The notes under the pieces were generated by a model. That model made no database searches and was not told the origin of the DNA. It saw only the letters and a program-made list of their open reading frames with translations. This document shows positions 924-18,390 of a stretch of 64,000 bases of DNA, in pieces. Position numbers and translations under genes: made by a program. Source of the DNA: a candidate division WWE3 bacterium GW2011_GWC2_41_23 (GTDB lineage Bacteria > Patescibacteriota > WWE3 > UBA101185 > UBA10185); assembly GCA_000996895.1 (NCBI GenBank), contig LCBB01000005.1, forward strand, positions 11,421 to 75,420. The letters run 5' to 3'. Positions within the stretch are counted from its first letter, which is position 1, and every line of letters starts with the position of its first letter.

Positions 924-2306
924 ATGAAACCATTTTGGGCTCTGGGCAGAGATGTGATTTTAGGTAGGATTAGAGATAGCCCGTTTTACGGGCTAGTAAA
1001 ATCTGTGCCATCATTATTTTTAATTATCTTTTTCCTTGCTCTTTTTTTCTATCTTGTTAATGTCCCCCGTGATTATCAGAAAAACCTGGAAACGAAAACT
1101 TATAGGCGCTTATTAACCTCATACGACATTACTTCGAATACTTTCTTACCCTACGAAATAATACGAAACCACAAGCTTTCTTTTGGAAAAGAGACTATGG
1201 CAGCCATGAGAGCTATAGAAGAAAGCAAGTTACCGCACTCGGTAATTTTTGCTGAGAGTAAGTATGTTCCGTCCTATCCGATTGTGTCCGGTCTGATGGC
1301 AGTTCCTGTATACTTTGTCCCTCTTGTGTTAGGAAAAATTCCGAATTTAGATACCGTGCAGCGAATTTTAGGTGTTCTTTTGCTGGGTCGCATAGCGGCC
1401 TCGTTCTATACAGCAATTTCAGTAGGAATCTTTTATTTAATCATCAGAAAATTTTCTACCACCAGAAAAATTAAAACAGGAGCTTGGATGTATGTGTTTA
1501 TATTTTTCTTTGCCTTTTGTACTAATGTGTACTCGATATCGAGCCGTGGTTTATGGCAACACGTTTCGGCATTACTTTTGAACTCACTGATTATTTTGTT
1601 TCTACTTTACTCTAACGAGCGGAAGTATTTGGTGAAGTGGCTAGGGTTACTCTGTGGGTTGGCTTTTCTAGCCCGACCGACAAATGTTTTTTTCATTTTA
1701 CCTGTCGCTCTTATTGTCTTTTTAAGATTTAGGAGTGAGTTTGTGAAGTTCGTGGCTATGGGTGCCCCTATAGCAATATTTTATCTTTCTTACAACTACC
1801 TTGTATTTGGATCTCCCATTACAAATGAATACATAGCTAGAAATGACACCACCTTTTCTACTCCTGTGTGGGTTGGTTTATTTGGTTATATGTTTAGTCC
1901 TGCCAGAAGCTTTTTATTTATCACTCCCCCACTAGTTTTAAGCTATCTTGGTATGTGGAAGTTATTTAAGTCCAGATCAAGAGATTATGTAGATACAATT
2001 CTTTTATATTTAAGCGTCGCTTTTCTTGCTACTCTTGTGATGTATTCGACATGGTGGTGTTGGTACGGAGCGGACAGATTTGGGTACGGCTTTTTTACAG
2101 AGTGGATCCCTGTTCTTACTTTGCTAACTTATCCTTTAGCTATAAAGATAAAAGGAATAGGCCGGTTTATCCTTGTATTACTAATTGCGTATTCGTTTTA
2201 CACGCAATTTAATGCAGTAATTTACCGAAAAAGTAGATGTAATATGAATCATAATTGGGATTTTTATTGCTTAAAACCCGGTATGTTTTCAGAGCAAGAG
2301 TACTGA
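924..2306 (+). CDS. polytopic membrane protein, GT-C-like glycosyltransferase candidate
   Basis: 460 aa with about 10 predicted TM helices. Architecture resembles ArnT/PMT-type GT-C enzymes. One of several similar membrane proteins in this window. Confidence 0.5.
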   Translation: MKPFWALGRDVILGRIRDSPFYGLVKSVPSLFLIIFFLALFFYLVNVPRDYQKNLETKTYRRLLTSYDITSNTFLPYEIIRNHKLSFGKETMAAMRAIEESKLPHSVIFAESKYVPSYPIVSGLMAVPVYFVPLVLGKIPNLDTVQRILGVLLLGRIAASFYTAISVGIFYLIIRKFSTTRKIKTGAWMYVFIFFFAFCTNVYSISSRGLWQHVSALLLNSLIILFLLYSNERKYLVKWLGLLCGLAFLARPTNVFFILPVALIVFLRFRSEFVKFVAMGAPIAIFYLSYNYLVFGSPITNEYIARNDTTFSTPVWVGLFGYMFSPARSFLFITPPLVLSYLGMWKLFKSRSRDYVDTILLYLSVAFLATLVMYSTWWCWYGADRFGYGFFTEWIPVLTLLTYPLAIKIKGIGRFILVLLIAYSFYTQFNAVIYRKSRCNMNHNWDFYCLKPGMFSEQEY

Positions 2307-2314
2307 CAAGATAA

Positions 2315-3328
2315 TTACAGAAACTCAAAAGTTCTCAGCATTTCCTCGTACGCACCCATGTAAGCACTTTTGCTGTTCTCACCCACAAACCTATATCTTA
2401 AAGAATACTTCGTACCGTCCTTAATAAATTCCGTCATTACGGCGTTTACTCCTTCGTAGCCATACTCATATCTGATGGCATTTTGTTCTGCAACAATTGT
2501 GTCTACTTTATTGGGTATTTTTGATGTTATTGGGTTATTTGAAAGGTCTTCGTTAATAGTTGCGACGGTAGTTTTCTTTGTATACACTGCAAGTTCAGCT
2601 CCCTCTTCCAGCACCGGGAAGCCCTCGGATATTTGATAATCAGGACTGGTAACTACCACACCGTTAATTTCTTTAGATAATTTCCATCCATTTGGATATG
2701 TAAAATTAAACACCCCTCCCATTTCCGGAACTTCAGCTCCTTCCCCGACTTGAACTGTTTGTAAAACTTTTAAGGTTTTTAAAATTTTCTCCGCCGCTAT
2801 TTTGTTTTCTGCTGTTCCCTGTGAAACGGCGATTCTTAAAATACGCCCGTTAAGCAAAAGGGAGTAGATGTAGTTTGGTCTCTCGCCTTTTTGCTGGGCT
2901 TCATAACCTTGTAATGGTCCTGCAGAAAATTCCTTAACATTCATATAGTTTTCAGTGTCGATTTTCATTTCGGCAATATCGTCCAGTATAATTTCCGGAA
3001 GATCGGGCTGGTACAAACCATATATTTGAAAGTCACCAGTGGATGGTCCGCCTTCGTATCCGTAATTCTGAATGTAAAAATTGTAGGATTCTAACTTTCC
3101 CGTTTCTGCATTAAAATTCGGAGATTTTATAACGTGAAGTTCCTGCGGGACCGTTAAAGAAATTCCCAACTCTTCGAAAATGTATTCCTTTTCGTTATTT
3201 AAGGTTTCGCTGGTATCGTTTTTAGTTGTAGGTACGGTCTCTTCTTTTGTAGAAAGTTTTATGTAAAGAAAGACAGACCCAAGTACAAGTAATAAAACAC
3301 CCATTACCGTAAAGAGAATTTTTTTCAT
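2315..3328 (-). CDS. membrane-anchored/secreted hypothetical protein
   Basis: 337 aa. N-terminal hydrophobic anchor (MKKILFTVMGVLLLVLGSVFLY) followed by a soluble domain. No recognisable motif. Confidence 0.5.
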   Translation of the reverse strand: MKKILFTVMGVLLLVLGSVFLYIKLSTKEETVPTTKNDTSETLNNEKEYIFEELGISLTVPQELHVIKSPNFNAETGKLESYNFYIQNYGYEGGPSTGDFQIYGLYQPDLPEIILDDIAEMKIDTENYMNVKEFSAGPLQGYEAQQKGERPNYIYSLLLNGRILRIAVSQGTAENKIAAEKILKTLKVLQTVQVGEGAEVPEMGGVFNFTYPNGWKLSKEINGVVVTSPDYQISEGFPVLEEGAELAVYTKKTTVATINEDLSNNPITSKIPNKVDTIVAEQNAIRYEYGYEGVNAVMTEFIKDGTKYSLRYRFVGENSKSAYMGAYEEMLRTFEFL

Positions 3329-16797: not shown

Positions 16798-16890
16798 ATA
16801 GATTTATTGTTATATTTGCTGCGTTGGTGCCATGTTTGTTATTCTTAACTCATATATAAAGGCAGCGAAACACACCCTTTAAAGTATAAG

Positions 16891-18390
16891 ATGACAAAAA
16901 TGAGGAACAGACCCGGAGCCGTAATGTTGTTAATAATCTTGCTGTTCTTACTTCCCCGGGTGTTCTTATTAGGCACCGATATATCAAACTCAGACGCGTT
17001 GAGGTGGCACAGAAGATCGGATAATTTTCTTCAAGCACTTAAAAACCAAAACTTTGAAAAAACTTACCAAAGATACCACCCCGGTGTTACTGCGATGTGG
17101 GCGGGGGCAGTGTCCGAACAAATACTTAACGAATATCAAAAACTTAAAGGGGACGAAATTGCTACCTTAGAAAATGCCGAGTTTTACCCGGTACTGCACG
17201 CGTTATCAAAATTAGTTTTGATTGCAATATTAGCTTTTTGTTTTGCGTTGCAAATCTACCTAGTAAGCAAATTATTCGGAAGTAAAACTGCTCTGTTATT
17301 TGGAATTATAATTTCCACGGAGCCATATTTTATAGGTATAAACAGATGGTTTCATCTATCGTCTATGGAAGCAATGTTTTCGTTAAATGTCCTTTTACTT
17401 TTGATGTATTTTATTCAAACCAACAAGTTGCGTTTCATTGTATTATCGGGTTTTTTTGCGGGGTTGGGGTTATTAACTAAAATGACGGTATCTATTACCA
17501 TAGCTTTTTCTTTTTCCTACATCTTATACAGAGTTTTTAGAAATAAGACTAAATTTAACGCAGCGGTATTTTACGTAATTTCTATATGTGTCACTGTATT
17601 AGTTTTGTTTCCTGCCTTGTGGGTAAAACCGATGTTTGTTTTTTGGTCGATGTACTCGGCTATTGTAAACGCCGTTTTTGAGGACATAAGGGGGGAGTTG
17701 CTTACGCTTCCGCAAAAGCTTTTTTATTACCCGATAATTTTATTATTTAAAATGTCGCCCGTGGTGTTGATAATAGGTGTTTACTCCATCATAAACACTT
17801 TTAAAAGGGTAACTAGTAAAGAATTTGTCTTAGGTGTATATCTCGTTTTCTTAGTAACATTTCTAACCATCACAGATCAAAAAATAGACAGATACTCCAT
17901 CGCGTTATTTCCTTTTTGGATACTATTGGTAGCAAACACCCTTTCAAAATTAAAACCTCGTATTTTGACTGTTTTGTTATCTATCCATGTCGCAACATTT
18001 ATATGGGCAACCTCAGTGTACTACCCTGTTTATTCTGCATTTATAAATCCTTTGTTCGGGCATAAATTTGTGTTAAACGCAGGATTTTATGAAAATTCCG
18101 GAGAGTATTTTTCAGAAGCGGCGTTTTATCTAAACATAAAAGGACGCAATATACGTACCCACGTCCCTAATAACATAGAGTCTTTTAAACCTTATTACAA
18201 AGGCAAGTTAACGGGGTTACTAGATGATGCTGACTACGTGGTCTATAGTTTGGATTTTGACCGCAAATCCTTTCCCGCTATTAAAGATTGTAAAATAGAT
18301 AAATATTTTGGAAACCGTTTATATAAACCCGTTGCTGTTTATGCATGTAACAACGTGAGTTTAAAAACAAAAAGCTATTTAGTCAGGTAA
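16891..18390 (+). CDS. polytopic membrane protein (ArnT/PMT-like glycosyltransferase candidate)
   Basis: 499 aa with many TM helices. Confidence 0.45.
   Translation: MTKMRNRPGAVMLLIILLFLLPRVFLLGTDISNSDALRWHRRSDNFLQALKNQNFEKTYQRYHPGVTAMWAGAVSEQILNEYQKLKGDEIATLENAEFYPVLHALSKLVLIAILAFCFALQIYLVSKLFGSKTALLFGIIISTEPYFIGINRWFHLSSMEAMFSLNVLLLLMYFIQTNKLRFIVLSGFFAGLGLLTKMTVSITIAFSFSYILYRVFRNKTKFNAAVFYVISICVTVLVLFPALWVKPMFVFWSMYSAIVNAVFEDIRGELLTLPQKLFYYPIILLFKMSPVVLIIGVYSIINTFKRVTSKEFVLGVYLVFLVTFLTITDQKIDRYSIALFPFWILLVANTLSKLKPRILTVLLSIHVATFIWATSVYYPVYSAFINPLFGHKFVLNAGFYENSGEYFSEAAFYLNIKGRNIRTHVPNNIESFKPYYKGKLTGLLDDADYVVYSLDFDRKSFPAIKDCKIDKYFGNRLYKPVAVYACNNVSLKTKSYLVR

Follow-up and report, generated by a model that had tools for sequence, protein, structure and literature searches.

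The DNA analyzed (the window, 64 kb) belongs to a bacterium of candidate division WWE3 (Katanobacteria, CPR), a groundwater organism with a tiny genome. Open reading frames for seven polytopic membrane proteins were found between 924 and 18390, together with an eighth at 33595–35214, as the original prediction had listed them (Table 1; genes and proteins are named by their lower coordinate). A hydropathy scan gave about 6–14 hydrophobic segments for each of the eight, in agreement with their proposed membrane nature. The seven genes account for 60% of 924–18390, so that they do occupy most of these 17 kb, and all eight make up 18.9% of the window. The genes interleaved with them are housekeeping or unrelated, again as described: an RsuA-like pseudouridine synthase, a SAM methyltransferase, three tRNAs, TrxB, an Fe/Mn SOD and a nucleoside deoxyribosyltransferase-like gene. 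The mechanical reading frame of p10444 opens at TTG 10396; the ATG at 10444 agrees with the start of the ortholog in a related locus (L004).

Table 1. Membrane glycosyltransferase genes and associated features of the window.
Feature	Coordinates	Strand	Length (aa)	Description
p924	924..2306	+	460	GT-C-fold (modeled) glycosyltransferase; unmatched in Pfam and NCBIfam; post-TM1 loop with invariant D68
Methyltransferase	4199..4948	+		Class I SAM methyltransferase with hydrophobic C-terminus; Methyltransf_23/11; convergent with p4980
p4980	4980..6980	-	666	GT-C-fold (modeled) glycosyltransferase, DUF6311-related; conserved D38
p10444	10444..11880	+	478	PMT_2 (GT39/GT83-like) GT-C glycosyltransferase; conserved D42-E43
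p12538	12538..14037	+	499	PMT_2 GT-C glycosyltransferase, paralog of p10444; conserved D41-E42
p14027	14027..15112	+	361	GT87-like GT-C glycosyltransferase lacking a C-terminal domain; recurrent cluster hub; invariant D35
p15223	15223..16797	+	524	Divergent PMT_2-like GT-C glycosyltransferase; invariant N50-D51-D52-W53
p16891	16891..18390	+	499	PMT_2 GT-C glycosyltransferase; conserved D35
p18436	18436..18966	+	176	Secreted protein; signal peptide, Ser/Thr-rich body, C-terminal sorting signal
p33595	33595..35214	-	539	ArnT/PMT_2-like GT-C glycosyltransferase, eighth copy; conserved D43-E44
p35219	35219..35887			Second putatively anchored protein, Ser/Thr/Gly-rich

Family assignment and predicted folds

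Three proteins passed the Pfam gathering cut-off for PMT_2 (PF13231, 26.1 bits), namely p10444 with 63 bits, p12538 with 44 bits and p16891 with 28.8 bits. At 18.5 bits p15223 was under the cut-off; its orthologs match PMT_2 in seven of seven cases, the best at 3.7e-11. The score of p14027 against GT87 (PF09594) was marginal, 25.7 bits compared with a cut-off of 25, and half of its orthologs (7/14) match at E ≤ 0.1, the best at 9.7e-8. No direct Pfam match was obtained for p33595; its homologs (1e-36 to 1e-27, >90% coverage) carry PF13231/PF02366, and hhalign aligned it to the set of PMT_2-annotated proteins with 100% probability and an E-value of 5e-80, indicating full-length homology. Among the families that had been proposed, PMT_2 and, marginally, GT87 were recovered; YfhO and true PMT (GT39 with MIR) were unmatched in the window. 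Searches by sequence found no match of the PMT_2-like proteins to solved ArnT or Pmt (E > 1), and profile searches of the PDB with p14027 returned nothing, solved PimE included.

The predicted paralogy of p10444 and p12538 was confirmed. The two are 31% identical over 430 aa (E 2e-44), and both contain the blocks LL[DA]QRKGP[VM]QF and YPW...GFPxxRGW. BLASTP joined no other pair, and at the level of sequence the proposed expansion of paralogs is thus limited to these two proteins. Profiles reached further, linking six of the eight families at hhalign probabilities of 91–100%. In this remote-homology network p12538 aligned to the PMT_2-annotated set over its full length (95%), p16891 to the p33595 family (97%) and the PMT_2 reference set (96%), and p15223 to the p16891 family (95%). 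p924, which has no direct PMT_2 match, was linked to the family at 91%; its profile retrieves over 14,000 representative relatives, and of 10 that were sampled, 8 are without a Pfam match. The link of p14027 to the other families was only 63%, and p4980 was joined to the other seven by fold only.

AlphaFold2 models of p924 (pLDDT 90) and p4980 (pLDDT 93.4) each contain at least 12 long helices, and only GT-C enzymes stood at the top of their structure-match lists. The best matches of p924 were ALG12, ALG9 and AftB. For p4980 the best 11 Foldseek matches were all GT-C enzymes and included AglB (9e-7), AftA, AftD, PglB, ArnT and Pmt4; its model also has a C-terminal extracytoplasmic domain of about 230 aa, consisting of an alpha/beta part and a beta-sandwich. 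Both proteins have the GT-C fold as modeled. By sequence, p4980 reaches neither DUF6311 (PF19830; no Pfam match at E ≤ 0.1) nor DUF6056 (PF19528), families of uncharacterized membrane proteins, and its homologs carry PF19830/PF19528 at 28–50% identity, many of them (E 1e-190 to 1e-54) being annotated as PF19830. The label that JGI gives to this family, phosphoglycerol transferase, was unsupported by the modeled fold, which is GT-C and not that of an alkaline-phosphatase-type domain.

An acidic residue following TM1 is conserved (≥90%) in eight of eight family alignments, 8–25 residues downstream of the helix (positions in Table 1). With Pfam, ortholog, profile or fold evidence for each protein, the ArnT/PMT/GT87-like reading was borne out, and all eight are GT-C-type glycosyltransferases. 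They add new members to an enzyme class that is already known and do not constitute a new kind of system. Five of the eight are already named GT39/RgtA-like in public annotation (p10444 is ‘Glycosyl transferase family 39’ in GenBank). The other three, p924, p4980 and p33595, were annotated as hypothetical only and now gain a fold assignment.

Conservation and linkage of the array

The block comprising p10444, sod, p12538, p14027, p15223, p16891 and p18436 is syntenic in WWE3 genomes (loci L003–L006 and L016), among them the complete genome of RAAC2_WWE3_1. The overlap of p12538 and p14027 is exactly 11 nt (14027..14037), and its retention in orthologous loci is consistent with the operon that had been suggested. 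The start of p10444 likewise overlaps trxB by 11 nt, and no terminator-like sites were found in the gaps 15113–15222, 16798–16890 and 18391–18435. Block synteny in close relatives extends into unrelated housekeeping genes (trxB, sod, pcmt, elp3 and ppi), so that synteny alone is no proof of functional coupling.

Clustering of the GT-C genes nevertheless exceeds chance. Across 38 dereplicated loci, 29 of the 63 evaluable positions next to the GT87-like gene (46%) were GT-C-like, and a GT-C gene lay directly beside it in 23 loci (61%), compared with a background of about 5% GT-C-like DNA at more than 5 kb from the GT87-like gene. A 12538-like gene was the commonest neighbor.

It is quite possible, if somewhat short of an even chance, that the GT-C enzymes are real and form no single system, being independent genes with their own acceptors that were gathered by tandem duplication and a high GT-C density throughout the genome. 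p10444 and p12538 are the only recent paralogs, the array is interrupted by housekeeping genes, and GT-C genes still occupy the 5% of DNA far from the cluster mentioned above. Copy number also varies: a third 12538-like copy, absent here, is present in L003, L006 and L016, and the last two carry an extra insert. Moreover, the neighborhoods of p924 and p4980 are not conserved, with unrelated surroundings in other genomes. Against this explanation, the GT87-like gene retains its GT-C neighbor in the 61% of loci even where the housekeeping synteny of the flanks is lost, and the stop/start overlap of p12538 and p14027 is conserved. Of the surface glycosylation system in the original prediction, the GT-C enzymes and a clustered core are supported; that all eight would form one system finds no support in the surroundings of p924 and p4980.

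Putatively anchored proteins as possible acceptors

The C-terminus of p18436 consists of VPETG, a hydrophobic helix and KKK, which at the level of motif agrees with the sortase-like anchor ascribed to it. This tripartite signal is kept as VP[EAD]TG in eight of eight homologs, with V and not L at position 1; the UniRef name is ‘LPxTG domain-containing’. A scan for TLxTC found no sortase gene in the window. Ser and Thr make up 25% of the body of the protein. Its gene directly follows the p16891 ortholog in eight loci (L003–L006, L016, L020, L022 and L024) and is one gene away from it in the rearranged L017, L035 and L039. p18436 would be a candidate acceptor for p16891. Another putatively anchored protein, p35219, is encoded 4 nt upstream of p33595.

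Pmt in Actinobacteria mannosylates Ser and Thr residues of secreted proteins. An array devoted to PMT-type protein O-glycosylation, mannosylating secreted or sortase-anchored proteins such as p18436, would be compatible with the PMT_2 matches, with the Ser/Thr content and conserved sorting signal of p18436 and its association with the p16891 ortholog in two gene arrangements, and with the position of p35219. We consider it unlikely. No window protein matches PF02366 (PMT), MIR or PMT_4TMC (PF16192), and PF02366 was seen only in distant homologs of p33595. The PMT_2 family is broad and includes ArnT, which modifies lipid A, while GT87 enzymes such as PimE work on glycolipids. In addition, the enzymes that p924 and p4980 match best by fold are not Pmt but lipid-linked-oligosaccharide, oligosaccharyl and arabinosyl transferases.

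Proposed mode of action and comparison with known systems

The reading that we favor, with a probability of about 85%, is that the region encodes seven GT-C integral-membrane glycosyltransferases, and the window eight, which build envelope glycans or glycoproteins with outward-facing activity. By analogy with characterized GT-C enzymes, the active site of each would lie on the outer face of the cytoplasmic membrane. The donor is probably a polyprenyl-phosphate-linked sugar, made in the cytoplasm and then flipped outward, from which the sugar would pass to a surface acceptor activated by the conserved Asp/Glu of the first extracytoplasmic loop. In PimE, the Asp of the first periplasmic loop is essential. 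p10444, p12538, p14027, p15223 and p16891 form a conserved co-directional array, the core of which, the GT87-like gene with a PMT_2-like neighbor, recurs across WWE3-type genomes. Working one after another or in parallel, these five enzymes most likely assemble or decorate a glycan or glycoprotein of the cell envelope. p924, p4980 and p33595 are further GT-C enzymes of the same organism, independently located.

The PMT_2-like proteins resemble the undecaprenyl-phosphate-sugar-dependent ArnT/PMT_2 enzymes (PF13231; GT83/GT39-like, ‘RgtA/B/C/D-like’) in their family matches, whether direct or via orthologs or profiles, in having about 10–13 TM helices and a first outer loop that bears an acidic motif, and in a C-terminal extracytoplasmic domain and full-length alignment with PMT_2 proteins. 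They differ in that at least six divergent copies occur within one small genome region. The acceptor of ArnT is also absent, since WWE3 make no lipid A (Kantor et al. 2013, PMC3812714). p14027 is comparable with PimE and other GT87 enzymes (PF09594), which are dependent on polyprenyl-phosphate-mannose and found in Actinobacteria: it is likewise short, without a soluble domain, and has an invariant first-loop Asp. The differences are its marginal score, the half of its orthologs that match and the missing sequence-level match to solved PimE. We know of no WWE3 bacterium that makes phosphatidylinositol mannosides. Like the mycobacterial arabinan/LAM line (AftA-D, EmbA-C) and the eukaryotic lumenal ALG3/9/12 pathway, the window combines several distinct GT-C enzymes, and these pathways supply the best structural matches of p924 (ALG12, ALG9, AftB) and p4980 (AftA, AftD, AglB). 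Unlike those pathways, sequential action is here a proposal, and the window lacks a DprE1/2-type donor pathway and acceptor polymer genes.

With genomes below 1 Mb, CPR bacteria are believed to live attached to other cells, which makes surface chemistry central to their biology; that chemistry is almost unknown. WWE3 have been reported to possess abundant glycosyltransferases, sortases and sorted proteins, and to lack a complete recognizable peptidoglycan pathway (Kantor et al. 2013, PMC3812714). The presence of eight GT-C genes in 64 kb points to elaborate sugar decoration of the cell surface. With 19% of the window given to GT-C genes and a recurrent pairing of GT87-like and PMT_2-like genes, the locus offers concrete candidates for surface-glycan enzymes and a target list for the glycobiology of uncultivated bacteria. 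The finding leaves the understanding of how GT-C enzymes work unchanged. As a speculation of rather low probability, WWE3 may build a major wall or surface glycopolymer outside the membrane through an assembly line of several GT-C enzymes dedicated to it, the parts of which might be the GT87-like hub, variable PMT_2-like partners, the membrane methyltransferase and the sortase-type anchored protein. If true, CPR bacteria would have their own equivalent of the mycobacterial arabinogalactan/LAM machinery, drawn from GT-C families without a characterized member.

PIG-U/GAB1 are non-catalytic GT-C-like scaffolds of the GPI transamidase. That some copies here are such scaffolds, or glycan polymerases or ligases instead of monosaccharide transferases, is very unlikely, as the post-TM1 acidic residue is kept in every family and PIG-U scores below catalytic GT-C enzymes in structure comparison. 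An identity as transporters, or as polytopic membrane proteins of some other unrelated kind, is effectively refuted: each of the eight has independent GT-C evidence, every significant match by fold or profile is to GT-C, neither Pfam nor NCBIfam assigns any of them to a transporter family, and what points the other way is a few MFS or other transporters in the Foldseek lists (probability ≤0.25, TM-score ≤0.15) and a single weak profile match to a sulfate transporter (E 0.16).

Three-component extracytoplasmic glycosylation systems comprise GtrA/GtrB/GtrC, ArnC/ArnEF/ArnT and CsbB/GtcA/YfhO (PMC11127046). The GT-C component is present here and probably works in the same mode, whereas the other two are absent from the window, which counts against the favored reading: a Glycos_transf_2/GtrA scan of all window ORFs of at least 200 aa and several smaller ones found no polyprenyl-phosphate glycosyltransferase (GtrB/DPM1/ArnC type) or GtrA-type flippase in the 64 kb, and LAB_N was the only small membrane ORF in 1–23 kb. 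One relative, L043, has a GT2 gene and a polyprenyl synthase joined to the array; this sole linked GT2 is generic, not specifically of the polyprenyl-phosphate (GtrB) type. In L017, the methyltransferase encoded in the window has a homolog that overlaps a 16891-like GT-C gene where that gene starts; in L043–L045 its homologs have a 687-aa YfhO-like protein on one side and a GT2 on the other. The methyltransferase is possibly an accessory of the array, although its membership is uncertain.

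Gene content and family assignment

The G+C content of the window is about 40%. Its first membrane protein matches UU64_C0006G0014, a hypothetical protein of candidate division WWE3 bacterium GW2011_GWF2_41_45, at 100% identity, and the remaining products are present verbatim in WWE3/Katanobacteria records. The membrane-protein ORFs of the original prediction, named here by their start positions, were found where it had placed them, and all eight proteins have the many hydrophobic segments of the polytopic type it described. As it had stated, the first seven genes dominate the roughly 17 kb in question, occupying 60% of 924-18390; the eight together account for 18.9% of the window. 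The interleaved genes are unrelated to these and encode an RsuA-like pseudouridine synthase, a SAM methyltransferase, tRNA-Leu, tRNA-Arg and tRNA-Gly, a nucleoside deoxyribosyltransferase-like protein, a small LAB_N membrane protein, a SHOCT protein, TrxB and an Fe/Mn superoxide dismutase. For the third membrane-protein gene, the mechanical ORF begins at TTG 10396; ATG 10444 is the start in orthologues such as that of L004 (the complete RAAC2_WWE3_1 genome), and from this ATG the gene overlaps trxB by 11 nt. The overlap proposed between 12538 and 14027 is likewise exactly 11 nt. The suggested paralogy of 10444 and 12538 was borne out by 31% identity over 430 aa (E = 2e-44), with the LLxQRKGPxQF and YPW...GFPxxRGW blocks common to both. 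BLASTP among the eight proteins detected no other pair.

Each of the eight was assigned to the predicted GT-C class by Pfam, orthologue, profile or fold evidence. Homologues of 33595 (1e-36 to 1e-27, >90% coverage) are annotated as GT39 or ArnT-like and have a PF13231 or PF02366 domain. In profile-profile comparison, 10444, 12538, 16891, 33595, 15223 and 924 were interlinked at 91-100% probability and 14027 was linked to 12538 at 63%, while 4980 was linked to none of the other families. When 924, 4980, 33595, 10444 and profiles A1-A4 were compared with PDB sequences, nothing significant was returned, and matches to solved structures were obtained by fold comparison only. The predicted model of 4980 (pLDDT 93.4) gave AglB, AftA, AftD, PglB, ArnT and Pmt4 as its top 11 Foldseek matches; residues ~440 to 666 make up a domain of their own, of alpha/beta plus beta-sandwich type. 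In JGI, the label "phosphoglycerol transferase" is attached to many proteins of the 4980/DUF6311 family. This was rejected because the model predicts a GT-C fold followed by a beta-sandwich at the C-terminus, and on these grounds the annotation seems to be mistaken.

An acidic residue shortly after TM1 is a sequence hallmark of GT-C active sites. Alignments showed one to be conserved at this position in all eight families. The alternative named with the original prediction, that the proteins lack GT-C matches and belong to transporter families, can be set aside, since none of the eight matched a transporter family. We place the probability that they are glycosyltransferases of the GT-C type with a role in extracytoplasmic glycosylation at roughly 0.85-0.9.

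Membrane-protein genes and other features of the window, with the evidence for assignment
Position (strand)	Product	Primary match	Further evidence	Conserved acidic residues
924-2306	GT-C type	no Pfam or NCBIfam match	assignment by fold	D68
4980	GT-C type	no Pfam or NCBIfam match	DUF6311/DUF6056 in homologues; assignment by fold	D38
10444	GT-C type	PMT_2, 63 bits (cut-off 26.1)	paralogue of 12538	D42-E43
12538	GT-C type	PMT_2, 44 bits	hhalign 95% to PMT_2-annotated set	D41-E42
14027	GT-C type (GT87-like)	GT87, 25.7 bits (cut-off 25)	GT87 match in 7/14 orthologues, best 9.7e-8	D35
15223	GT-C type	PMT_2, 18.5 bits (under cut-off)	PMT_2 match in 7/7 orthologues, best 3.7e-11	D51-D52
16891	GT-C type	PMT_2, 28.8 bits	hhalign 96% to PMT_2-annotated set	D35
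33595	GT-C type	no Pfam match	hhalign 100%, E 5e-80	D43-E44
4199-4948 (+)	methyltransferase, membrane-tailed class I SAM type
8085-8615 (+)	mechanical 176-aa TTG ORF crossing tRNA-Arg 8123-8198 (-); real gene, 107-aa LAB_N membrane protein from ATG 8292	PF07578, "lipid A biosynthesis N-terminal domain"
18436-18966 (+)	secreted 176-aa protein
20661-22382 (+)	Elp3-like protein	radical SAM + Radical_SAM_C + GNAT
27629-28819 (-)	GH1 glycoside hydrolase
35219-35887 (-)	222-aa protein, N-terminal membrane anchor, Ser/Thr/Gly-rich Cys-containing body	no Pfam match
36037-36744 (+)	N-acetylmuramoyl-L-alanine amidase	Amidase_2
51901-53070 (+)	GH76/GH88-like (alpha/alpha)6-barrel protein
56931-58749 (+) and 61499-63741 (-)	NiFe-hydrogenase small-subunit-like and large-subunit genes, pyruvate:ferredoxin oxidoreductase subunits	Oxidored_q6 (small-subunit-like)

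In existing records, "Glycosyl transferase family 39" is the GenBank name of both 10444 and 12538, and UniRef lists 14027, 15223 and 16891 as "RgtA/B/C/D-like domain-containing"; 924, 4980 and 33595 are "hypothetical" throughout. Fold assignments for these last three are added here, as are the very large size of the 924-type family (14,764 representatives at E<=1e-3, most of which Pfam does not cover) and the GT87-like/PMT_2-like pairing statistic described below.

Genomic linkage of the GT87-like gene

A genome scan with 14027 yielded 15 loci. The order LAB_N - SHOCT - trxB - 10444 - sod(-) - 12538 - 14027 - 15223 - 16891 - 18436 - pcmt(-) - methyltransferase - elp3 - ppi was kept in five WWE3 loci (L003, L004, L005, L006 and L016) at 50-85% protein identity. 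Such block synteny in close relatives is weak evidence for function because housekeeping genes are included. A third 12538/10444 paralogue lies between the 14027 and 15223 orthologues in L003 (7299-9032), L006 (11020-12582) and L016 (6325-7938). Neither the window nor RAAC2_WWE3_1 has this copy, so that the number of GT-C genes in the array differs between close relatives. In L006 and L016 the orthologues of 15223 and 16891 are further separated by about 3 kb of inserted DNA, which in L006 (14138-17316, minus strand) encodes an FAD/amine-oxidase-like oxidoreductase (524 aa) and another polytopic protein (526 aa); the latter matched neither Pfam nor any of nine GT-C profiles. Promoter and terminator scans over 9000-19800 of the window performed no better than on shuffled sequence, and operons were not defined.

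Linkage evidence from more distant genomes is stronger. A metagenome scan added 55 loci, and dereplication at 85% identity gave 38 evaluable loci. A GT-C-like gene stood directly beside the GT87-like gene in 23 of these and on 29 of 63 evaluable sides; at distances above 5 kb, the GT-C share of the DNA was 5.3%. The commonest neighbour was a co-directional 12538-like gene; 15223-, 16891-, 10444- and 14027-like genes were also found adjoining. On this enrichment, the GT87-like gene is a hub whose GT-C partners vary. The homologues of 924 and of 4980 were found in unrelated contexts with no conserved partners, and the full set of seven is thus a conserved core plus additional local copies.

The methyltransferase gene between the first two membrane-protein genes is convergent with 4980. 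Its homologue in L017 (9730-10473, minus strand) overlaps the start of a gene of the 16891 type. In L043-L045 the homologue (L043:11141-11884, plus strand) is flanked on one side by a 687-aa weakly YfhO-like protein and on the other by a GT2, with a polyprenyl synthase adjacent. The 687-aa L043 protein is weakly like 4980 (hhalign 36%). Enzymes of this type accompany various GT-C genes in three or more arrangements, and may methylate the glycan or its donor. The L043 GT2 was rejected as a polyprenyl-phosphate donor enzyme of the GtrB/ArnC type (generic NCBIfam match only; ArnC 23 bits, PpgS 20 bits), and the synthase was rejected as UppS, being of the trans (IdsA/GGPP) type. A search of the whole window for donor-pathway genes (GT2, GtrA, UppS), covering all ORFs of at least 200 aa and several shorter ones, found none.

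Proposed mechanism and candidate acceptors

Characterised GT-C enzymes (ArnT, PimE, Pmt, Aft/Emb, ALG, OST) serve as the model for the proposed mechanism. By analogy, a sugar carried on polyprenyl phosphate would be bound in the outer leaflet by each of the eight proteins and then passed to an extracytoplasmic acceptor via the conserved loop-1 carboxylate. The genes 12538-14027-15223-16891-18436 are co-directional and partly overlapping, and it is plausible that their products share one surface glycan or glycoprotein as their target. That the core array forms one pathway is a tentative reading, a little short of even odds. It is quite improbable that the array serves as the assembly line for a principal envelope polymer in a lineage whose wall is atypical.

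Glycosyltransferases were previously found to be especially abundant in WWE3, for which polysaccharides, glycoproteins or a glycosylated S-layer were suggested; sortases and sorted proteins were reported, and a complete pathway for peptidoglycan was not recognised (Kantor et al. 2013, PMC3812714). Literature searches found nothing on GT-C expansions or mannosyltransferases in CPR/Patescibacteria, and nothing relevant on DUF6311 or PF07578.

The sortase-like anchor expected on 18436 is present at motif level as VPETG, a hydrophobic helix and a terminal KKK; VP[EAD]TG occurs in 8/8 homologues examined, and UniRef names the protein LPxTG-domain protein. Members of this family directly follow the 16891 orthologue in L003-L006, L016, L020, L022 and L024 and lie one gene from it in the rearranged L017, L035 and L039. 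As a feature of gene order, this association is the sole hint at an acceptor, and 18436 itself is an unlikely candidate for that role.

Elsewhere in the window, the gene for the 222-aa anchored protein stops 4 nt ahead of the 33595 start and shares its strand; its product may be an accessory protein or acceptor. Elp3 modifies tRNA and is typical of archaea and eukaryotes, and the Elp3-like gene is kept in the WWE3 synteny block. The amidase gene is present although WWE3 was reported to have no full, recognisable peptidoglycan synthesis pathway (PMC3812714). The LAB_N protein is a three-helix protein, syntenic with the array in close relatives only, in a lineage without lipid A (Kantor et al. 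2013, PMC3812714). The hydrogenase and pyruvate:ferredoxin oxidoreductase genes represent fermentative energy metabolism and are unrelated to the GT-C array. Enzymes of GH76 cleave alpha-mannans, and the GH76/GH88-like protein could be related to putative mannose-containing surface glycans.
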